IMG/VR virus record: IMGVR_UViG_3300021399_000137
Span: 5,938 to 69,937 of that record
DNA from: a virus
Taxonomy: Duplodnaviria; Heunggongvirae; Uroviricota; Caudoviricetes
Length of the DNA: 64,000 bases
Reading direction: 5' to 3' (one strand)
Shown: one piece after another, positions 31,238-49,150 of the stretch
How the letters are laid out: each line of letters starts with the position of its first letter
Position numbering within the stretch: the stretch's first letter is position 1
The notes under the pieces: model-generated
Databases searched by the model: none
What the model saw: the letters and a program-made list of their open reading frames with translations, nothing else
Told to the model about the DNA's origin: nothing
Program-made: the position numbers and the translations under genes

Positions 31238-32746
31238 TTAATTATCTTCATTAATATTTTTATTTAATATGTCAGATGTTTTTGCTGTAGCATAACCTGT
31301 AATTAAAGATTTTAAATCTAATCCTAAACTATCTTGAGCTACTTTAAGTATCTTATCTATTTTTTGAGTATTTTCTTCTATTAATTTAGTTGATTGGTCA
31401 CCATACATTGTAATAGTATCAACATTTGTAAGTGGGGCTGATACTTCTTTTGCAATATCTGGTAATACTTTACATATCATTTCTACTATAGAAGCTTGTT
31501 TCATTTTAGCTTGAGCCTCAGCTTTCTTTTCTATACCCTCAGCTTCTGCTAAAGCTTTAGCTTTTACACCTTCAGCCTCTGCAAGTAATTGAGCTTTTCT
31601 ACCTTCAGCTTCTGCTTCCATTTTAGCTTTAATACCTGCAGCTTCTAATTCCATAGATTGCTTATTAGCTTCTGCTATTTTAATCTTAGCTTGAGCTTGA
31701 TATTCAGCTTCTTTAGCATCTGCTTCTGCTTTTTGTATTCTAGCCTCTTTATTAGCTATAGCCTCTTGTTCTATTTTATATTTATCAGCGTCTGCCTGTT
31801 TTCTAACTAAAGCATCTAATTCTTTTTCTTTTAGAGCTACTTCTTTTTCTTTAAGTTCAGTCATCTTTTCTGCTTTAGCTACTTCTGCAGCTACAGTATT
31901 CTCATTTACTAATTTTTGTTGTTCTGCTTTTTGAATATCATATACAGTATCAGCTTCTGCTTTTTTCTTGTCTTGTTCAATTTTATATGTTGCTTTTTTA
32001 ATTTCTAATTCTTTTTGTTGTTCTGCAATTTTAGCATCTGCTTCTGCTCTAGCTTTAGCTCCCTCTTCATCTGCTAAAGACTCTGCAATTTTAATTTCTT
32101 TTTCTGCTTGAGCTTTGGCTATTTTAGCCGTTTTTTGAATATTAGATAAATTATCTATACCTAAATCTGTAATAGCGTTATTCTCGTCTGTACAAGATTG
32201 TACGTTTAATGATACTATTTCTAAACCTATTCTATTAATATCATCTTTAGCATTTTCTTGAATTTTTTCTGAAAATAATTTTTTATTATTTACTAAATCT
32301 TTTAGGTTCATTTGACCTATAATTTCTCTCATATTACCTTCTAGAACTTGTTGTACATTTGTTGCAATATAATTAGAAGATTGATTTAAAAAATGTTGTG
32401 CTGCTATCTGAATAAGAGCATCATCTTTAGGTATTCTTACATTAGCTACAGCATCCACATCAACATTTATAAAATCTGATGTTGGTACTCTACTAGTTCT
32501 AACATCTATTTGAATTAATTCTAAAGTTAATTTATCAACTCTCTCAAAGAAAGGTATTCTTAATGTTGCTTTTCCTATTAATACCCTAGGTTCTTTTCTT
32601 AAACCTGATATTAAATACACCATATCTGGTGGACATTTTACATAGCTTACTGCTATAAATGTAATTAAAAGTAATATAATTACTCCTATAATTATTGCTA
32701 TAATCATATTTACAAACCTCCTATAAATTATTCTACAATTTTCCAA
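31238..32746 (-). CDS. Flotillin-like SPFH/band-7 membrane protein
   Basis: N-terminal TM helix, SPFH core (...LIGKATLRIPFFERVDKLTLELIQIDV...), and a long coiled coil with EA/AEAEG repeats as in FloT/YuaG. Confidence 0.7.
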   Translation of the reverse strand: MENCRIIYRRFVNMIIAIIIGVIILLLITFIAVSYVKCPPDMVYLISGLRKEPRVLIGKATLRIPFFERVDKLTLELIQIDVRTSRVPTSDFINVDVDAVANVRIPKDDALIQIAAQHFLNQSSNYIATNVQQVLEGNMREIIGQMNLKDLVNNKKLFSEKIQENAKDDINRIGLEIVSLNVQSCTDENNAITDLGIDNLSNIQKTAKIAKAQAEKEIKIAESLADEEGAKARAEADAKIAEQQKELEIKKATYKIEQDKKKAEADTVYDIQKAEQQKLVNENTVAAEVAKAEKMTELKEKEVALKEKELDALVRKQADADKYKIEQEAIANKEARIQKAEADAKEAEYQAQAKIKIAEANKQSMELEAAGIKAKMEAEAEGRKAQLLAEAEGVKAKALAEAEGIEKKAEAQAKMKQASIVEMICKVLPDIAKEVSAPLTNVDTITMYGDQSTKLIEENTQKIDKILKVAQDSLGLDLKSLITGYATAKTSDILNKNINEDN

Positions 32747-33324: not shown

Positions 33325-33395
33325 GTGGAGAGATATATTGGAATTGAACCAATAATAAGAATATAAAATTCTTGCTAAACCATTAGCTAATATCT
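33325..33395 (-). tRNA. tRNA with anticodon UUA in the canonical fold (candidate ochre suppressor)
   Basis: Minus strand GAGATAT-TA-GCTA-ATGGTT-TAGC-AAGAA-TTTTATA-TTCTT-ATT-ATTGG-TTCAATT-CCAAT-ATATCTC-T-CCA. All four stems are perfect. It is compact (no nt 26, 3-nt variable loop). Anticodon-loop positions give 5'-UUA-3'. Confidence 0.5.
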
Positions 33396-33475
33396 CATGT
33401 AAGGGATTTTGATTTTATTTTCGGAGGAGTCTCCCTAACTTATACTCAACTCTTATCTGGGAGCTACCCAGCCTC

Positions 33476-33551
33476 TGGTTGCGCAGGTAGGACTCGAACC
33501 TACGACCTTGAGGTTATGGGCCTCACGAGCTACCAACTGCTCTACCACGCG
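33476..33551 (-). tRNA. Initiator-type tRNA-Met (CAU) with C1-A72 mismatch
   Basis: Minus strand CGCGTGG-TA-GAGC-AGTTGGTA-GCTC-G-TGAGG-CCCATAA-CCTCA-AGGTC-GTAGG-TTCGAGT-CCTAC-CTGCGCA-A-CCA. Closely parallels E. coli tRNA-fMet, including the unpaired 1:72 and the GCAACCA end. Confidence 0.7.
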
Positions 33552-33850: not shown

Positions 33851-34477
33851 TTATTTTATGCCTGAATTACCAAATCCTGTATCACCACGATTAGTATTCA
33901 TTACTTGTTCTCTAGTTAAATTATTTACTTTTAACCAATCATCTAATGGAATAAAATCAAAAGCATAGGTCTTTACTATATTTATAGAGCAAACTCTATC
34001 TCCTTTATGAACTTCTATATCTTTATCTCCATTATTTTGAATTAAAGCATTAATAATTCCTCTATAATTACAATCTACCCAAGGTTCTCCTACATCTATA
34101 GGAGCTCCATAGATATTTCCTAAATAGCATCCACCCCTATTTACTGAATGAACACCATAACCAGTAGGAATTATCATACCTATACCTAAAGAAACTTTTT
34201 CTGCAGAATGAGCTTTAATTACTTTATCTTCATTAAGATAAGCATCATAACCTATATCGCCTTCTTTTTTTCTTTCAGGTAACTTAGCTCCGTCTTCTAG
34301 CCAGTAAGGTACTGGTATTTTAGGTTCCATATTTAATTGTTCATGAATTTGTTTAGCCAAAATAGTATAAATTTCAGCATTAGTTTTTACTGTTGCTTCT
34401 AAGTCTTCTAATTTTTTCTCTAATTCAGAAACTCTTACTCTTAATTTATCAAGTTCAATATGATTAATATCGCTCAT
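33851..34477 (-). CDS. dUTPase-family nucleotidohydrolase (dUTPase or dCTPase/dUTPase) with ~55-aa N-terminal coiled-coil extension
   Basis: dUTPase motifs GDIGYDAY, GDRVCSI, and C-terminal RGDTGFGNSG. Confidence 0.7.
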   Translation of the reverse strand: MSDINHIELDKLRVRVSELEKKLEDLEATVKTNAEIYTILAKQIHEQLNMEPKIPVPYWLEDGAKLPERKKEGDIGYDAYLNEDKVIKAHSAEKVSLGIGMIIPTGYGVHSVNRGGCYLGNIYGAPIDVGEPWVDCNYRGIINALIQNNGDKDIEVHKGDRVCSINIVKTYAFDFIPLDDWLKVNNLTREQVMNTNRGDTGFGNSGIK

Positions 34478-34502: not shown

Positions 34503-34772
34503 TTATGAATTATTTGTGCTTAAATTATTGTACTCATTTAAAACAGCTTTATGAATTATTTCTCTTGCTGTAGAATTTATAGGATGAGCTATATCTGAAA
34601 AACCGTCTGGTGTTCTTTTACTTGGCATAGCTACAAATATTCCTTTTTCTCCATTTATAATTTTAATTCCATGAATAGCAATTTCATCATCTATTACTAT
34701 AGATGCTACTGCTAATAATCTGCTATCTTCTCTTCCACTAACTTCATTTACTCTAACGTTTGTTATTTTCAT
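34503..34772 (-). CDS. spoVG: SpoVG family protein
   Basis: MKITNVRVNEV...LAVASIVIDDEIAIHGIKIINGEKGIFVAMPSKRTPDGFSDIAHPINSTAREIIHKAVLNEY aligns along its whole length with SpoVG. Confidence 0.75.
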   Translation of the reverse strand: MKITNVRVNEVSGREDSRLLAVASIVIDDEIAIHGIKIINGEKGIFVAMPSKRTPDGFSDIAHPINSTAREIIHKAVLNEYNNLSTNNS

Positions 34773-34863: not shown

Positions 34864-35664
34864 TTACATATCATAATTAATAATTCCCATATTTTCACAT
34901 ATAGTTTTAAATTTTTCTTTTGACTCCCAGCATTCATCTACTTGTGCTTCAAGATATTTTAAATTATCATCATTCCATAACTCATCCAATTTATAATAAA
35001 CTGGAATTTCATTATCATCATTAATAATTTTTTCTAGTAAATCATAATCTCTTTCATACACATGTAATGATGTATCAAAATGAGTATATGGTCCACATTC
35101 TAACCCTAATCTATGAGCTACATATTTCTGTAATTCTGTAAAATATACGATGTCGAATGTTAAACCTTTAATCAAATCATTACTTCTCATACACACAGTA
35201 GAGCATAGTTTATTATCTCTTATATAATAATGCAAAAACATTGTACATTGAGTATCTCTAGTTACCATTCTATGTCTATCAGGTGTATTAATATTTATTA
35301 CAGCTCTTCTAGAATTTGGATTTCTTCTTAATTCATCAATAGCACATTCTAATTGGTCAAATCCATGTTTATATTTTATAATATATCCATATGCAGAATT
35401 AGCTGTTTTACCATCATCAGAAATATTTCTCCAAAATTTAGAAAAATGGTCTATAAATTCTATGTCGTTTCTTCCTGACCAATACCATATTAATTCGCCT
35501 ATAGCGTAAATCATAGCTTTATCTCTACAACTTAATGTAAGAACATTATTATCTAAATCATTAAAAACAAATTTTTCGTTTAATAATTCTTTAGTTCCAT
35601 TTACCTCTGGAGCCTTTAATAATTTACTGGCTAAATCCTTAAAAAGTGTATTTATTTCTAACAT
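34864..35664 (-). CDS. ThyA-family pyrimidine C5-modifying enzyme with Asp at the specificity position (dCMP hydroxymethylase/methylase-like)
   Basis: RNPNSRRAVINI and catalytic Cys in TQCTMFLHYY. In ...CMRSNDLIKGLTFDIVYF the residue aligned with E. coli TS Asn177 is Asp, as in T4 dCMP hydroxymethylase Asp179. Confidence 0.7.
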   Translation of the reverse strand: MLEINTLFKDLASKLLKAPEVNGTKELLNEKFVFNDLDNNVLTLSCRDKAMIYAIGELIWYWSGRNDIEFIDHFSKFWRNISDDGKTANSAYGYIIKYKHGFDQLECAIDELRRNPNSRRAVININTPDRHRMVTRDTQCTMFLHYYIRDNKLCSTVCMRSNDLIKGLTFDIVYFTELQKYVAHRLGLECGPYTHFDTSLHVYERDYDLLEKIINDDNEIPVYYKLDELWNDDNLKYLEAQVDECWESKEKFKTICENMGIINYDM

Positions 35665-35683: not shown

Positions 35684-36799
35684 TTATATATTATGCTTAT
35701 TCTTTATATCTTCGAATATTTCAAAACAATCTTTTATAACATCATCCATATCAAAATACTTATACTTTCCAAGTCTACCTGCAAAGATTACTTTGTCTTG
35801 TTTATCTGCTAATTTTTTATATTTTTCATATAAATCTAAATTCTTTTTATCAGTCATAGGATAATATGGTTCTCCTGAAGCTTGAGGATATTCAAATGTT
35901 ATAATAGAAGTGTCTGTTTTTACAGGATTAAACCACTTATGTTCTATTACTCTTGTGTAAGGTCTTTTGTTATCAGTATAATTAACTACTGCGTTACCTT
36001 GATAATTAGATTGATTTATTTCTTTATTAATAAATTTTAAACTTCTATATTCTAATTCTCCATATTTATAATTAAAATATTCATCTATCTTGCCAGTGTA
36101 TATAATATAGTCATAAATGTCTTCATAAGTACTTCTATTTTTAATAAAATCTTTATCTAACATGATATTACATCCTTCTAACATTTTTTCTATCATATTA
36201 GTATATCCATTTACTGGAATTCCTTGATAAATATCGTTAAAATAATTATTGTCGTAAATCATTCTTAGTGGTAATCTTTTAATTATATCTGGACTTAATT
36301 CAGTACAAGATTTACCCCATTGTTTTTCAGTATAACCTTTTATTAATTTTTCATATACAGTTGTTCCAACCATATTTATAGCTTGGTCTTCTAAATTTTC
36401 TATAGTAGGATGTTCTTCTTTATAAGCATCGATTTCTTTTTGTATAATTTCTTCTACTTCATTAGGCCATCTAGTATTAAACATTTTACTAAATGTATTC
36501 ATATTAAACGGTAAATTATAAAGCTCATCGTTTTCTGTTACTGCCAATGGGCTATTTATAAAATTATTAAATTTTGCAAACCTATTTATAAATGACCAAA
36601 CTTCTTCATCACTAGTATGAAATATATGAGGTCCATACTTATGAATATCTATTCCTTTATCTTTATATGTATAACAGTTTCCTGCTATGCGATTTCGACG
36701 GTCAATTACAGTTATTGCATGGCCATCTTCAATTAATAGTCTAGCTAAAGTAGCTCCAGCTAAACCTGCTCCCACAATTAAATAATTAGACATTTTCAT
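35684..36799 (-). CDS. glf: UDP-galactopyranose mutase
   Basis: YLIVGAGLAGATLA...ITVIDRRNRIAGNCYT...IHKYGPHIFHT...NSPLAV...YNLPFNMNTF is collinear with bacterial Glf (FAD-binding GxGxxG). Confidence 0.85.
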   Translation of the reverse strand: MKMSNYLIVGAGLAGATLARLLIEDGHAITVIDRRNRIAGNCYTYKDKGIDIHKYGPHIFHTSDEEVWSFINRFAKFNNFINSPLAVTENDELYNLPFNMNTFSKMFNTRWPNEVEEIIQKEIDAYKEEHPTIENLEDQAINMVGTTVYEKLIKGYTEKQWGKSCTELSPDIIKRLPLRMIYDNNYFNDIYQGIPVNGYTNMIEKMLEGCNIMLDKDFIKNRSTYEDIYDYIIYTGKIDEYFNYKYGELEYRSLKFINKEINQSNYQGNAVVNYTDNKRPYTRVIEHKWFNPVKTDTSIITFEYPQASGEPYYPMTDKKNLDLYEKYKKLADKQDKVIFAGRLGKYKYFDMDDVIKDCFEIFEDIKNKHNI

Positions 36800-37829
36800 C
36801 TACTTCCTTTTTCTTAGATTTAGTAATATGTTTCTCGTTCCACTCATTTATTTTATCTTGCCATAATTCTGTAAATCCTATATAATCTATTTCTTGAGTT
36901 TCGTTAAAGAAATACTTATACCACTCATTATTATATATAGGAACTAGCGTATGTTTTTCAGCTAAATCCTTCTTTATTCTACTCCATTTAAATGTAGAAT
37001 TTAGTTGACCTTTATCTACTTTAAAGCCTACATATTCTCCCCAAGTCTTATATAAATTCATAGACTTTTTAGTCCAAGTATAATCTCCGCCTGAAGCTAT
37101 AGATTTTTTAGGTGTCATTGTATCACCAGAATAAGTTAACCATCCAATATTTATTGTGTCTAATCCATTCTTATATACTTGTAATTGAACATCAAAATCA
37201 TCCCAAGCTTCTATATTATTATAACTAATATTATATTGATTAAACAAATTAGTATTAATATAAGCTATTTGACATATTCTGCCTGACTTAGTATAATAAG
37301 GTAATGTTTCTAAATCTTGACACCAACTAGATGCTTCTGAAATTACACCTCCTAAAGCTGGTTTATAATCAGCAATATTATGAATTACATAATACCAAGT
37401 TTTAAAGAATTGTTCTGGTGTAATTTCTACTTTTTCAGCCTTATATTTACCTGATTTAGTTAGACCTGGTCTAGTATAATATAATTTTGTAATGTCATCG
37501 TCTAATATAAAGTAATCTTCAAATCCCATTTTAAGCATGTTAGCTTGAACAAAATCTCTTTTCTTAGCAGCTCCTCTAAATTCTTGAGATGGACATAATA
37601 CTACTCCTATATTATTAGACGCTTCAACTTCTTCTTTATAATTAATGTAATCATCATCATATACGAATAAATATGTTGGAATATTAGTATTTTTCATCAA
37701 TTGAATTGATGAAGCTTGACCTCCTCTTTTATATGATATAATTACTACAGGAGCTATAACTTTTTTACTATATTCTTCAGTAGCAGTATTTACTAATTCT
37801 GTAGTCCAATTTAAACTTCTATTTTCCAT
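36786..37829 (-). CDS. Putative GT-A-fold glycosyltransferase (DxD-type)
   Basis: N-terminal PVVIISYKRGG beta-strand/Rossmann-like start and FILDDDITKL DxD motif. Overlaps glf by 14 nt and the kinase gene by 11 nt, suggesting translational coupling. Confidence 0.45.
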   Translation of the reverse strand: MENRSLNWTTELVNTATEEYSKKVIAPVVIISYKRGGQASSIQLMKNTNIPTYLFVYDDDYINYKEEVEASNNIGVVLCPSQEFRGAAKKRDFVQANMLKMGFEDYFILDDDITKLYYTRPGLTKSGKYKAEKVEITPEQFFKTWYYVIHNIADYKPALGGVISEASSWCQDLETLPYYTKSGRICQIAYINTNLFNQYNISYNNIEAWDDFDVQLQVYKNGLDTINIGWLTYSGDTMTPKKSIASGGDYTWTKKSMNLYKTWGEYVGFKVDKGQLNSTFKWSRIKKDLAEKHTLVPIYNNEWYKYFFNETQEIDYIGFTELWQDKINEWNEKHITKSKKKEVDENV

Positions 37830-38319
37830 AATAATTCCTTTCTATCTCTTTAAAAAATTCTATTTGGTCTTTATTTTTACTGATATCTAAAGCAAATACG
37901 TTATCATAAGTATTAGAAAAAATATTAGCTAACATAGTATAAAGAATATTAATTTTCTCTGCGTTTGCTAAAACTTGTTCAGTATCTCCTCTTTTAAATA
38001 ATCTTTCTTTTAAATCTTCAAAATTAGATGCAAAGAAAATAATATAAATAACAGACTTCTCTTTACAAACATTCATAAATTCTAATTGTTCTAACCAAGT
38101 CATCTTAGGTTCTCTATGATATATTATGGGATATACAATCTCGCCTAAATTACATCTATCACATACCACGCTGTCATATTTGATTAAATCTAAATGATAT
38201 TGTAAATCATTTTTAGTATCAGAGCTTGAGTGCTCTATATCCATATTTCTATTTTGCTCTAAAAATCTAGCTAAAGTTGATTTACCTATACCATCACAAC
38301 CTTCTAAAATAACATTCAT
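37819..38319 (-). CDS. Deoxynucleoside monophosphate kinase (Tmk/dNK-like P-loop kinase)
   Basis: P-loop ILEGCDGIGKSTLA at the N-terminus; 166 aa. Confidence 0.6.
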   Translation of the reverse strand: MNVILEGCDGIGKSTLARFLEQNRNMDIEHSSSDTKNDLQYHLDLIKYDSVVCDRCNLGEIVYPIIYHREPKMTWLEQLEFMNVCKEKSVIYIIFFASNFEDLKERLFKRGDTEQVLANAEKINILYTMLANIFSNTYDNVFALDISKNKDQIEFFKEIERNYYGK

Positions 38320-41806: not shown

Positions 41807-42958
41807 TTATTCTCCTTTATAAAATGGATTTTTATAACAAGATTTACTTAAATCTTCATAAAATACATCTTTAGTTTTAAATTGATGTGTGTCAGTGTCA
41901 ATTAAAGTAAATGCAGTAACAGTAGTTCTAATTCCATTTGGTTTCTTTTCATTATTTATTGTTTCAGGTCTAAGATTAAATCTTTTTAAGATTATAATTT
42001 CACCATTATAACCGAATTCTCTTAATATTTCTCTTAGTCTATTATTAACAATTTCTATTAAACTTTTATTAAATACCTTCATATAACTTTTCTCTAATGA
42101 TGGCTTAATTCTAAAATATGGGGTTTTAATTACTTTATTATCACATAATAAATAAATTTTATGCTCATTTTTCTCTCTTAATCTTAAACCTTGATTTTTA
42201 CTTTCAATAATACTTCCATTACTAGACTTATATATTTTACTGCATTCTTTTTGTTCTACTAAATCTATATCATGATTAATCTCATCTAATAGTTTTTTAT
42301 CATATTCATTTTTTGTAAAGTCTTCTATTGTTTGAATAGATAAATACTTGTCATTGTTAATCATAGAATATCTTTTAAAATCTCTATAATAAATATATGT
42401 GTTTTTTAAAGCATTACATTTATTATATTCACTATCAAAAATAAAGTTATCGTCTTCAAATATAGTACTTCCAAGATTAGTAAGAATATCTGAATATTTA
42501 CTATCTTCAGAAAATAAATCATTTGTAAATAATCCGAATTCCTTTATATAAAATAAAGATTTACTCTTTTTTCCACTACCAGTATTAACTATTCCATATA
42601 AGTAATGTATTTTACCGTTATTTATATTTATTAAATCTTCATCTGTTAAATATAAAACGATATCAGAATTAATATATTTAACAGATTTATTTCTAATTGT
42701 TTTAATTCTAATATATACTCTATAATTATTTTTCTCTTCTTTTTGTATAGTAACAATTTCCATTTTTAAATAGGCACACTTATGTATAAAACCACTTGTA
42801 TTTATGCTCATCTTAGGAAAATTTTTAATTAAATACGTTCCATTAATATTATTTTCTTTACAATATGTAAGATATTCACTAAATTTAGTATTATATTGTT
42901 GTAATTGTGCTTTAGTATTAGTTAATAAATAAGGTTTATCAAAATTACTTTTATTCAT
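41807..42958 (-). CDS. Hypothetical N/K-rich protein
   Basis: 383-aa ORF upstream of the Toprim gene. Confidence 0.3.
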   Translation of the reverse strand: MNKSNFDKPYLLTNTKAQLQQYNTKFSEYLTYCKENNINGTYLIKNFPKMSINTSGFIHKCAYLKMEIVTIQKEEKNNYRVYIRIKTIRNKSVKYINSDIVLYLTDEDLININNGKIHYLYGIVNTGSGKKSKSLFYIKEFGLFTNDLFSEDSKYSDILTNLGSTIFEDDNFIFDSEYNKCNALKNTYIYYRDFKRYSMINNDKYLSIQTIEDFTKNEYDKKLLDEINHDIDLVEQKECSKIYKSSNGSIIESKNQGLRLREKNEHKIYLLCDNKVIKTPYFRIKPSLEKSYMKVFNKSLIEIVNNRLREILREFGYNGEIIILKRFNLRPETINNEKKPNGIRTTVTAFTLIDTDTHQFKTKDVFYEDLSKSCYKNPFYKGE

Positions 42959-43000
42959 AGTTAAATTCTCCTAAATAGTTAAATTATATTTTATATTATG

Positions 43001-44185
43001 TTAGTTGTCATAAATCATTAAAAATGCTCTAATAAAATCTGTTTTTATAGTAACTCCTAAATCATCTAATGCTATATCTATATTCTGTGAATTAGAAAAT
43101 GCACTTAATAGTCTCTTTAATATTATAGCATTTAAGGTAATTTCTTTACCGAACAATCTACCTTGTGCTAATTTCTCAATAGAAAAATTAAAATTAGAAG
43201 TTCCTCTATTATTTATTATATTCAAATTTAATTTATCACTAGTATACTTCATAGATATTGTATTATTAATTCCTGGTAAATTAGTAGCTAAATTTATAAC
43301 TCTATATAATTTATCATATTGTATTGATATTTCAGGCTCTTTTATAAGTTTATTCATTTCATCTATCACCAAGTTCATCTCAGAAGCTCTTGAATTTATA
43401 AACTGATATTCTATATTGTTCATAATTATTCTATATCTAGATAGTGACGTATCTACGCTGAATAATATTATTTTACTATCTTTATAATATTTATATAGTC
43501 TACTAATAAACTCCACATCTCTAAAAGATAAACACATTTCAGGAGTTTTAATATCTCCATCTATATAATAGAATGATGATTTAAAATACATTTTATTTCC
43601 AGTAAAATATAATTTTTTAAAATCATTTATAGTTTCAGATGATATTAATGGTAATATAGAATAACATGCTTTACCAAAAGTTGATAAACTTAGTTCAGCA
43701 ACTTTATCTTTAACATCTCCGGGCATAAGAACAATGTCTTTTCTTACAGGTCTAGCATCTATTAATAAATCTCCATCTAATAGTCTAATATAAAATTTAC
43801 CTTCTCTATTATATATTAAAACTTTATTTCCCATAAGTCTTACTATTTTCTGTAATATTGCTAATGATATAGAAAATGGTTCTTCTATACATTTAGTTAA
43901 ATCTCCAATTAACTCTGCTTCATATCTAAAATGAGACAATTCATTTGTTACATAAAAATTTAATGTATATAACGATTTAATAAAAGATATAGAGCTATAT
44001 TCAGATATATCTGACTTAACTAAAATAATCTTGCTACATAAATTAATTACTCTTACTAAATCATCTCTCTTAAATATTAAATGGGGATAATCTACCGATA
44101 AATCTATAGATTTATCATTATCAACTATTAGTTCATCATCTAAAATATTATTAAATTCTAATGATACGCTTAATTCTTCATCCAT
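43001..44185 (-). CDS. Hypothetical protein (possible DnaN-like sliding clamp)
   Basis: 394 aa, size and location near the clamp loader. Only weak pattern similarity to beta-clamp N-terminal domains. Confidence 0.25.
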   Translation of the reverse strand: MDEELSVSLEFNNILDDELIVDNDKSIDLSVDYPHLIFKRDDLVRVINLCSKIILVKSDISEYSSISFIKSLYTLNFYVTNELSHFRYEAELIGDLTKCIEEPFSISLAILQKIVRLMGNKVLIYNREGKFYIRLLDGDLLIDARPVRKDIVLMPGDVKDKVAELSLSTFGKACYSILPLISSETINDFKKLYFTGNKMYFKSSFYYIDGDIKTPEMCLSFRDVEFISRLYKYYKDSKIILFSVDTSLSRYRIIMNNIEYQFINSRASEMNLVIDEMNKLIKEPEISIQYDKLYRVINLATNLPGINNTISMKYTSDKLNLNIINNRGTSNFNFSIEKLAQGRLFGKEITLNAIILKRLLSAFSNSQNIDIALDDLGVTIKTDFIRAFLMIYDN

Positions 44186-45006
44186 AGGTTCTCCATATCT
44201 TTCCTTTCATAATTATTAAGTAGTCTTAACAACTCAAAATATTCCTCTTCAGTATATTCTTTTAACGTAACATCCATGAAAAAATGTTTATCAAACCAGT
44301 CATTAATCTTTGTTAGTTTATTATCTTCTTTTTCTGATATATCTCGTTTTGTACAAAAAGCAACATTTAAACCAGGACTCCAATATTTTTCATTATATAC
44401 ATAAGCTCTTACATTTTTCAGCCTTTTAAATTTAAATTTTATTAAAGCTATAATCATTTTCTTACGATATTTCTTTACTATTTTATTTTTATAATGCAAA
44501 TAATATGATGATATATAATATTTTAAAGCTTTAAAATAAGAGACGTCGTCATAAAAACTCCATCCAGACCAATCTGCTTTATAAAAACTTTTTATTTTAT
44601 TTTTTCTTAATGCTTTTAACATAAGTTCTGTCTCTGTTAGCCACCATTTATATTCTTGACTTTTATCATCGTTAGTTTCAATATATCGTTCTATAGGTAG
44701 ACAGAAAGATGACCTACTAGGTTTAAATTTATCTATATTAATTGTAGGTTGAGTAAATAATATTAATTTACTTTCTTGATAAGACTTATCATAATAATTT
44801 AAATCAACATTATTAGACATCCATATACCAAAAGTAAAATCTGGAATTTCTTTAATTTTAAATGTACAAATAGAGTCTTCACCATATTCTATTATAAAAT
44901 ACCCATTTCCATATCTCCTTCTTATACAATGAATATAAAATTCCTTCTCTATAGTATTTAAAAAATCTTCTATAAATTCTTTATTAGTTTTTAATTTATC
45001 TTCCAT
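44170..45006 (-). CDS. Hypothetical protein
   Basis: 278-aa ORF. Confidence 0.3.
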   Translation of the reverse strand: MEDKLKTNKEFIEDFLNTIEKEFYIHCIRRRYGNGYFIIEYGEDSICTFKIKEIPDFTFGIWMSNNVDLNYYDKSYQESKLILFTQPTINIDKFKPSRSSFCLPIERYIETNDDKSQEYKWWLTETELMLKALRKNKIKSFYKADWSGWSFYDDVSYFKALKYYISSYYLHYKNKIVKKYRKKMIIALIKFKFKRLKNVRAYVYNEKYWSPGLNVAFCTKRDISEKEDNKLTKINDWFDKHFFMDVTLKEYTEEEYFELLRLLNNYERKDMENLWMKN

Positions 45007-48868: not shown

Positions 48869-49150
48869 TTAATTTTCTCCTCTATATTCTTCTAATATAG
48901 CATATAAGATTTCTTGTCTAGTATCTTCTTTTATAGGAAATGCTATGTTTCTTCCTTTGTCATCATTTGGGAATTTTAAATATTCTCCTTTAACACCAGT
49001 CATTAATCTTATTCCTTTAATAACAACGCTATAATCAATTACTAAATCTATTGTTGCTAAAAAATTTCTATCTAATGGATGTTCTTTTCTATAATTATCA
49101 TCTATTTTAGTCATGTCTATTTTAGTTATAATCATTTTAATAACCTCCAA
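48869..49150 (-). CDS. Divergent SpoVG-like protein (second paralog)
   Basis: LATIDLVIDYSVVIKGIRLMTGVKGEYLKFP...RNIAFPI...RQEILYAILEEY follows the SpoVG pattern A.A.I..D..F.I..IR...G..G.F..MP...R.IA.PI...R..I...VL.EY. Confidence 0.45.
   Translation of the reverse strand: MEVIKMIITKIDMTKIDDNYRKEHPLDRNFLATIDLVIDYSVVIKGIRLMTGVKGEYLKFPNDDKGRNIAFPIKEDTRQEILYAILEEYRGEN

Follow-up and report, generated by a model that had tools for sequence, protein, structure and literature searches.

A phage thymidylate synthase homolog with aspartate at the Asn177 position is a probable deoxycytidylate 5-hydroxymethylase in a putative T4-style cytosine-modification cluster

Results

Gene content of the locus

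The window, by which we mean the whole stretch of 64,000 nucleotides that was analysed, belongs to the 118.6-kb metagenomic contig ERZ12302813 NODE_151, which has ~27% GC and carries all of its genes on one strand. Structural genes of the contig are T4-like (homologs of gp23, gp21, gp20, gp19, gp25 and gp53) and its best matches among cultured phages were Listeria, Bacillus and Streptococcus myoviruses. Because a megablast of window positions 30-42 kb against 50,697 phage records gave no match, we concluded that the phage has no close cultured relative in that reference collection. In the order of transcription, the region around the ThyA homolog encodes a clamp loader, a sigma factor, a Mor-like protein, a Tmk-like kinase, a TAGT glycosyltransferase, Glf, the ThyA homolog itself, SpoVG and a dUTPase-family protein, followed by two tRNAs, Tad2, an SPFH/flotillin protein, a tail-collar protein and FolD. 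The genes considered here are:

49137..49871, minus strand: dCMP deaminase-like protein, 244 aa (Pfam dCMP_cyt_deam_1, 3e-16; PHROG dCMP deaminase, 4e-35)
37819..38319, minus strand: thymidylate-kinase-like dNMP kinase, 166 aa, predicted 5-hm-dCMP kinase (Pfam Thymidylate_kin, 2e-06; PHROG thymidylate kinase, 4.5e-14)
36786..37829, minus strand: TAGT-family glycosyltransferase, 347 aa, predicted to glycosylate 5hmC in DNA (Pfam PF20691 TAGT, 5e-13, 49.8 bits, cutoff 27.5)
35684..36799, minus strand: UDP-galactopyranose mutase (Glf), 371 aa, predicted supplier of UDP-galactofuranose (Pfam GLF, PF03275, 2e-76; PHROG 9677, 1e-127)
34864..35664, minus strand: predicted dCMP hydroxymethylase (5-hm-dCMP synthase) of the ThyA family, 266 aa
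34503..34772, minus strand: SpoVG homolog within the cluster (Pfam SpoVG, 1e-28), in the same position in three related lineages
33851..34477, minus strand: trimeric dUTPase-family protein, 208 aa, with an N-terminal extension of ~60 aa (Pfam dUTPase, 5e-11; solved dUTPases down to 1e-14)
29564..30445, minus strand: FolD, methylene-tetrahydrofolate dehydrogenase/cyclohydrolase (Pfam THF_DHG_CYH_C, 7.5e-57; THF_DHG_CYH, 5e-30)

The stand-alone kinase showed 38% identity (3e-25) with the N-terminal domain of proteins from other phages, such as P0023, that join a kinase to a ThyA homolog carrying aspartate at the Asn177 position, hereafter ThyA(Asp). Since the two are fused in those phages, their activities appear to be linked. 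The TAGT protein also matched PHROG 842 'beta-glucosyl-HMC-alpha-glucosyltransferase' (7e-11), and a sequence search of solved structures with it gave no match; that it acts on 5hmC in DNA is reasonably likely. The N-terminus of Glf contains an FAD/NAD-binding domain (NAD_binding_8, 2e-20) with a GAGLAG motif. The dUTPase-family protein, whose gene accompanies ThyA(Asp) in VPE25 and in L012, L014, L017 and L018, is a candidate dUTPase and possibly a dCTPase too; it has no similarity to T4 gp56, and the window yielded no dCTPase of the gp56 type, so that cytosine in the phage DNA may be replaced incompletely. Nor did the following 10 kb of the contig, reached via ORF 61518-62024, contain a ThyA, ThyX or dCTPase domain. 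FolD, which is kept in the relatives L009 and L013, is a possible supplier of the one-carbon donor.

The ORF belongs to the thymidylate synthase family and its fold is closest to that of MilA

Positions 34864-35664 coincide with exactly one ORF, which starts with ATG at 35664, ends with a TAA stop and is preceded by an AGGAG ribosome-binding site ~8 nt upstream of the start. The ORF matched Pfam Thymidylat_synt (PF00303) with E=3e-28 and 99 bits (cutoff 24.3) and has both the profile and the TS fold of the thymidylate synthase superfamily. It is a member of this family, and as a known kind of enzyme that is ordinary for phages it adds another member to that kind. All catalytic residues were retained (Glu57, Tyr92, Arg119/Arg120, Cys140, Arg160, Ser161, Asp163, His201 and Tyr203), and the columns corresponding in E. 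coli (Ec) ThyA to the catalytic Cys, Glu58, Tyr94, Arg126/127, Arg166, Ser167, His207 and Tyr209 were all invariant across homologs. Thr141 stands where TS has His147; threonine is also found there in T4 gp42, RB69 gp48 and MilA. The codons of the three residues on which the following sections turn are:

35245..35247, minus strand: TGT, catalytic nucleophile Cys140 (Ec Cys146), an invariant column
35254..35256, minus strand: GAT, Asp137 (T4 gp42 Asp145, Ec Leu143), three residues before Cys140
35152..35154, minus strand: GAC, Asp171 (Ec Asn177, T4 gp42 Asp179), the cytosine versus uracil determinant, placed by alignments

Homologs of this ORF are labelled 'thymidylate synthase' in Pfam, PHROG and GenBank, names that are homology transfers.

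A fold search with an AF2 model of the ORF returned these structures, given with score and number of residues matched:

MilA, CMP hydroxymethylase: 27.2, 248
9iqc, flavin-dependent dCMP monooxygenase: 22.1, 205
Bacterial thymidylate synthases: 20-22, 222-227
T4 dCH: 19.5, 203

The match with MilA thus spans 248 of the 266 residues. Residues ~215-266 form extra helices, an extension of about 50 residues, and the C-terminal tail with which TS seals in the folate is missing; MilA is the reference enzyme that has such an extra helical C-terminal domain (PMC5175136). RL38J1 gp216 was likewise reported to match MilA best. Because the fold alone does not tell hydroxymethylases from hydroxylases, the decision between the two falls to residue tests. 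All in all, the ORF probably belongs to a MilA-like/VPE25-like structural subfamily and would be the functional counterpart of T4 gp42.

Asp171 occupies the position that determines base choice

Residues 160-175 of the ORF (RSNDLIKGLTFDIVYF) aligned without gaps with E. coli ThyA (RSCDVFLGLPFNIASY, BLASTP), B. subtilis ThyA (RSNDMALGNPFNVFQY, HMMER) and T4 gp42 (RSNDVVFGFRNDYAW, BLASTP). These gap-free alignments with three references place Asp171 on Ec Asn177 and T4 Asp179, and two independent MAFFT alignments gave the same column. Asp was present there in all 123 homologs from a large protein database, and the full active-site motif including the Asp171 equivalent was found in 79 of 80 related IMG/VR loci. 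Asn occupies this column in the dUMP-specific references E. coli ThyA, SPO1 gp29 and phage Ag3. Asp171 is therefore a fixed trait of the family and no chance substitution. As the first-pass annotation had claimed, the residue equivalent to Asn177 is Asp; every alignment put Asp171 there and none placed a different residue at the position, the outcome that would have spoken against the claim.

According to published work on ThyA-fold enzymes, Asp at this position makes them choose cytosine over uracil (PMC5175136, PMC6400193, PMC13326640). The annotation's further statement, that the exchange switches specificity from dUMP to dCMP, agrees with the residue rules given in these three papers. On these alignments we hold with high confidence that the enzyme is specific for cytosine.

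Residues around the catalytic cysteine point to hydroxymethylation

A study of T4 dCH in a ternary complex proposed a signature for hydroxymethylation made of three residue positions: at -3 from the catalytic Cys an acidic residue, Asp or Glu, that activates water (T4 Asp145, TS Leu143); at -2 from the catalytic Tyr a Ser or Thr (T4 Ser94-x-Tyr96); and a small residue where TS carries Trp83 (PMC6400193). In the ORF, the segment VTRDTQC contains Asp137-x-x-Cys140, and Asp137 falls on T4 Asp145 in an ungapped BLASTP block with T4 gp42. Asp at -3 from the Cys was found in 128 of 130 family and reference sequences, including SPO1 gp29, Ag3 and VPE25. The loop before the Cys is 4 residues shorter in the ORF than in E. 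coli and T4, and its gap is placed differently by MAFFT and by BLASTP against E. coli, only the alignment with T4 being gap-free. Because of this variation, the equivalence of Asp137 with Ec Leu143 rests on the sequence alignment with T4 and on the literature on T4 and MilA, the latter being described as an enzyme with an equally short loop and with Asp at the Leu143 position (PMC13326640). The motif NSAYGY corresponds to T4 NSNYGW, so that Ser90 equals Ser94 and Tyr92 equals Tyr96, and Ser90-Ala91-Tyr92 was invariant in the second alignment. At the Ec Trp83 position the ORF has Ile81 and T4 has Val85.

ThyA homologs that act as 5-hydroxy-dCMP synthases, using flavin and O2, likewise combine Asp at N177 with an acidic residue in place of L143, and they add D169N, which was proposed as diagnostic for them (NAR, 2026; PMC13326640); this rule is empirical and recent. 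The D169N mark was missing from the ORF. Ec Asp169 corresponds to Asp163 and Ec Gly173 to Gly167, both of which were present in 123/123 homologs. In contrast, RB69 gp48 reads RSQN...V and RL38J1 gp216 reads MRSQNMVSV, both with Asn at the Ec Asp169 position and without Gly173. As for the sugar of the substrate, MilA prefers CMP on account of Ala176 and Lys133, and exchanging both residues (A176S/K133R) shifts its preference to dCMP (PMC5175136). The equivalents in the ORF are Ser161 and Arg119 (Ec Ser167 and Arg126), as in deoxyribose-preferring enzymes.

The first-pass annotation had left the choice between a dCMP hydroxymethylase and a dCMP methylase, excluding a thymidylate synthase, and had proposed to look at the residues that separate the two. 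Every sequence test run agreed with it, and Asp137, Ser90-x-Tyr92 and Ile81 narrowed the choice to the hydroxymethylase. This reading is favoured over the methylase because the signature residues are present and the predicted DNA glycosyltransferase of the flanking region would need a hydroxyl acceptor. From these residues, a hydroxymethyl product is quite likely.

The cluster recurs in related phages

The whole cluster was retained in a relative with 81% identity. In a sister lineage with 70% identity and the same backbone, a T4-type beta-glucosyltransferase (PF09198) exactly replaces TAGT plus Glf, and a lineage at 52% identity carries TAGT, Glf and a second TAGT. In unrelated PolA-type phages, the kinase::ThyA(Asp) fusion is directly followed by PF09198, after which come sugar-nucleotide-type genes, dUTPase and dCMP deaminase. 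The closest homologs in cultured phages, with 42-49% identity, were those of Enterococcus phages VPE25 and VFW, in which the order is kinase homolog, ThyA(Asp), dUTPase and b-gt, with a second GT two genes on. VPE25, the nearest phage for which DNA data exist, is at 42% identity. Virion DNA of VPE25 and VFW contains a glycosylated modified cytosine, as determined by restriction and bisulfite tests and not by mass spectrometry; the DNA of both phages withstands bisulfite conversion as well as digestion with EcoRI and MspI, and it is cleaved by PvuRts1I, which cuts glucosyl-5hmC DNA (PMC4999554). Taken together, the fusion, the lineage comparisons and the DNA data from cultured phages tie the ThyA(Asp) family to a predicted role in providing 5hmC as the acceptor when DNA is glycosylated.

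Discussion

Proposed pathway and its alternatives

We propose that the ORF encodes, with good probability, a folate-dependent deoxycytidylate 5-hydroxymethylase that would act alongside a dedicated kinase and a DNA glycosyltransferase to modify cytosine by a pathway of the T4 kind. Cys140 would attack C6 of dCMP while Asp171 binds and protonates the cytosine at N3/N4, and methylene-tetrahydrofolate would place the one-carbon unit on C5. A water activated by Asp137 and positioned by Ser90 and Tyr92 would then hydrate the exocyclic methylene, so that the product would be 5-hm-dCMP and not a methylated nucleotide. The adjoining kinase would phosphorylate 5-hm-dCMP for incorporation into DNA by the phage replisome, and after replication the TAGT glycosyltransferase would put a sugar on the 5hmC, possibly galactofuranose from UDP-Galf made by the adjoining mutase. 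The likely purpose would be protection against host nucleases. Family membership, residue equivalences, conservation, fold, and the neighbourhood with its recurrence were computed, and the substrate, the product, the order of the steps and the sugar are what we infer.

The closest competitor would be a flavin- and O2-dependent 5-hydroxy-dCMP synthase of the RB69 gp48, DLP3 gp80 and RL38J1 gp216 type, with the sugar attached directly to 5-hydroxycytosine. These enzymes (PDB 9IQC; PMC13326640) resemble the ORF in their ThyA fold and in having Asp for N177 and an acidic residue for L143; like the predicted enzyme they supply an acceptor for DNA glycosylation, and RL38J1 also has Glf. We consider this reading improbable. 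Their D169N and lack of Gly173, seen in RB69 gp48 and RL38J1 gp216, contrast with the Asp163 of the whole family, and with Gly167; RL38J1 gp216 shares only 32% identity over 140 residues with the ORF (E=1e-14, against 4e-27 for MilA), the Ser-x-Tyr motif is as in T4 gp42, and the phage-encoded FolD suggests a demand for folate one-carbon units. Relatives have a beta-glucosyltransferase of the T4 type, whose family has 5hmC as its target, and the cleavage of VPE25 DNA by PvuRts1I also argues against it. A dCMP methyltransferase yielding 5-methyl-dCMP, perhaps with a separate oxidation before glycosylation, is slightly less probable again. Asp at N177 alone would fit it as well as a hydroxymethylase, and TAGT was named after its association with TET dioxygenases, which convert 5mC to 5hmC. 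Against it stand the hydroxymethylation signature (a methyl-forming TS has Leu143 and Trp83, which keep water out) and the replacement of the TS tail, which seals the site for hydride transfer, by a helical extension, with the MilA match covering 248 of the 266 residues. In addition, a scan of 65 window ORFs took in all but 11 of those with >=80 aa, in a window that spans all of the contig except ~55 kb; it revealed neither a TET/JBP dioxygenase domain nor one of a cytosine methyltransferase, and the TET-dependent route from 5mC to 5hmC was set aside.

Two further readings seem very improbable, and to the same degree. An ordinary thymidylate synthase converting dUMP to dTMP is what the database names say, and the general catalytic residues are all present; but those names were transferred by homology, and Asn177 to Asp, Leu143 to Asp, Trp83 to Ile, His147 to Thr and the lack of the TS tail are invariant in the family. 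The neighbours are glycosyltransferase and kinase genes, with no DHFR alongside. A ribonucleotide (CMP) hydroxymethylase like MilA or BcmA, serving a small-molecule pathway and not DNA, would agree with MilA being the best match in both sequence and structure. However, MilA Ala176 and Lys133 are replaced by Ser161 and Arg119, the direction in which the A176S/K133R mutant turns to dCMP (PMC5175136); the setting is the replication and nucleotide module of a lytic T4-like phage, and nothing homologous to MilB, the MilA-pathway N-glycosidase that frees the base, came up in the scans.

Comparison with known enzymes

The deoxycytidylate hydroxymethylase proposed here would have the reaction and role of T4 gp42 (PDB 1B5E, 6A9B, 6L18). 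The two share Asp179/Asp171, Asp145/Asp137, NSNYGW/NSAYGY, RSND, Thr after the Cys and the lack of a TS tail; both adjoin a DNA glycosyltransferase gene and belong to T4-like myoviruses that encode a dCMP deaminase as well as a dNMP kinase. MilA (PDB 5JNH, 5B6D) differs in its ribonucleotide preference, since Ala176/Lys133 give way here to the Ser161/Arg119 of dCMP and dUMP enzymes, and in serving the Streptomyces mildiomycin antibiotic pathway and no phage DNA pathway. The ThyA homolog of VPE25 and VFW has the same active-site signature, and around it the kinase, ThyA(Asp) and dUTPase genes keep their order, with glycosyltransferases coming next; these phages, unlike the present one, are siphoviruses of ~86 kb with a T4-type beta-GT and a second GT and without Glf. 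The 5-hydroxy-dCMP synthases are set apart by D169N, the absence of Gly173, flavin and O2, whereas the ORF keeps Asp163 and Gly167. The dUMP hydroxymethylases SPO1 gp29 and Ag3 (ViI-like) share the short loop, the Asp at -3 and the hydroxymethylation chemistry, but have Asn at N177, Asn after the Cys, Gln at Ec Arg127 and a uracil substrate.

The residue set N177, L143, D169, S167 and R126 (E. coli TS numbering) sorts uncharacterised ThyA homologs into predicted makers of dTMP, 5hm-dUMP, 5hm-dCMP, 5ho-dCMP and 5hm-CMP, and the 'thymidylate synthase' labels that most homologs bear in databases would hide a cytosine-replacement pathway. Glycosylated 5hmC is predicted for this gut myovirus and for its relatives. 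It would make their DNA resistant to many restriction enzymes, perhaps also to some CRISPR nucleases, and a target of type IV restriction, and it could bias the preparation of sequencing libraries.

A recurrent link between ThyA(Asp) and Glf

More interesting than the enzyme itself are the recurrent link between ThyA(Asp) and Glf and the exchange of TAGT plus Glf for a beta-GT in sister phages. Any Glf homolog was found in only 90 of 50,697 phage records, and Glf lay within ~5 kb, often as the next gene, in 14 of the 80 IMG/VR loci retrieved with a ThyA(Asp) profile. These 14 loci represent at least three lineages, between which ThyA identity is at most 47%. Lactobacillus phage ATCCB has the order kinase, ThyA(Asp), beta-GT and Glf; the ATCCB paper does not mention DNA modification. 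A GalE-like epimerase lies two genes past Glf in one clade, and therefore the route from UDP-Glc through UDP-Galp to UDP-Galf would be complete there. Enterococcus phage Efs 1-1-1, whose record is flagged unverified, has Glf and no ThyA(Asp) within 8 kb, and it was left out of the supporting cases.

The only published link that we found between a phage Glf and modified cytosine is RL38J1, which carries galactose on 5-hydroxycytosine, not 5hmC, and encodes Glf (PMC13326640). Literature searches combining galactofuranose with 5hmC, and dCMP hydroxymethylase with Enterococcus phage, returned no report of such a modification, and we found none of any furanose hexose on 5hmC. As judged from gene neighbourhoods, the recurrent link suggests galactofuranosyl-5hmC DNA. 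That galactofuranose is the sugar on the DNA of this phage is a tentative proposal, somewhat less likely to hold than to fail; the broader one, that this lineage, several uncultured lineages and ATCCB decorate 5hmC in their DNA with galactofuranose through Glf (with GalE in some) and a TAGT-type or other GT, is more doubtful still. Glf could serve another purpose, or TAGT could use a different donor sugar. The repeated Glf link is a lead to a new DNA sugar, and a transferase that puts galactofuranose on 5hmC could serve 5hmC labelling. If the proposal is true, the sugar would behave as an exchangeable cassette through which a single phage lineage varies the chemistry of its DNA, because sister phages with the same backbone hold a T4-type beta-glucosyltransferase in that slot.

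Genes that accompany ThyA(Asp) and the modification cluster

The presence of the dUTPase-family gene near ThyA(Asp), the thymidylate synthase-family enzyme with Asp at the E. coli TS N177 position, is not restricted to the window, as both genes are found together in several phage lineages. Because of this association, the dUTPase-family protein encoded in the window (33851-34477, minus strand) may be regarded as a candidate dCTPase/dUTPase. Alignment with a solved dUTPase placed its 'NRGG' opposite 'RTRSG', and the protein carries an N-terminal extension of ~60 residues that contains many charged residues and Leu. The genes for ThyA(Asp) and the dUTPase-family protein are separated by a SpoVG homolog, whose position is kept in three related lineages, including locus L019 (3255-3530). 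The source contig also carries a SpoVS homolog, located ~7 kb past the high-coordinate end of the window.

Features of the window other than the modification enzymes
29564-30445, minus strand: FolD, complete
31238-32746, minus strand: SPFH/flotillin protein, 502 aa
32728-32982, minus strand: Tad2-like anti-Thoeris gene
33326-33396, minus strand: tRNA with anticodon UUA (ARAGORN 'tRNA-Stop'; Rfam tRNA, 47.3 bits)
33476-33551: tRNA-Met, adjoining the UUA-anticodon tRNA
34503-34772, minus strand: SpoVG homolog
41807-45006, minus strand: three conserved ORFs, 278-394 aa, adjoining a Toprim gene
62157 to beyond 64000, minus strand: 949-aa ORF, extending past the window end

Whereas the gene found near the modification cluster of the window is Tad2-like, the equivalent place in the sister lineage, which has a T4-type beta-glucosyltransferase, is occupied by Tad8 and Acb2/Tad1-like genes (L012, 10135-10610). 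This difference suggests that the DNA-modification genes are adjoined by a variable anti-defence islet. The two contigs of the sister lineage also differ from each other: L013 holds a gene of 778 aa with an intein-splicing domain (13955-16291), and L012 has at the same place a gene of 378 aa.

Glf and ThyA(Asp) in other viruses

Searches with Glf, the UDP-galactopyranose mutase, identified a homolog with ~35% identity in several cultured phages with genomes of ~160-176 kb (records H124-H137), among them Aeromonas phages 25, Aes012 and phiAS4, Stenotrophomonas phage IME13 and Erwinia phage FBB1. ThyA(Asp) and Glf were found together in viral contigs. An IMG/VR phage clade of ~43% GC (L064, 7932-12708; also L048-L101) carries consecutive genes for ThyA(Asp) of 343 aa, Glf, a 350-aa protein, a 184-aa protein and a GalE-like epimerase. 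The 350-aa protein, which had no match in Pfam, is a candidate for a new DNA glycosyltransferase. In a very large viral contig of IMG/VR, 394 kb in length (L038, 7494-13239), a kinase::ThyA(Asp) fusion occurs with Glf and a TAGT, a member of the DNA glycosyltransferase family PF20691, together with a T5orf172/MUG113-type endonuclease-like gene and an uncharacterised 348-aa protein.

Other genes of the window

The SPFH/flotillin and FolD genes are placed between the structural and the nucleotide-metabolism genes. The three conserved ORFs beside the Toprim gene had no match in Pfam, and the two larger ones had none in PHROGs; the 949-aa ORF is likewise without a recorded Pfam family, and no recognisable DNA polymerase was found in the window. 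A GroEL/Cpn60-like gene (60152-61515, minus strand) is apparently contained in two ORFs, one of 279 aa that corresponds to profile positions 1-189 and another of 128 aa that corresponds to positions 332-388. The same split is present in the gene calls of the source contig, and the gene could represent a truncated, interrupted or degenerate chaperonin.

With respect to the tRNA genes, the UUA anticodon would be predicted from its sequence to target the UAA stop codon. TAA is the most frequent stop in the window (43 of the 76 ORFs), and the ORFs look intact when read by the standard code. In related phages, the tRNA position is occupied by other tRNAs.
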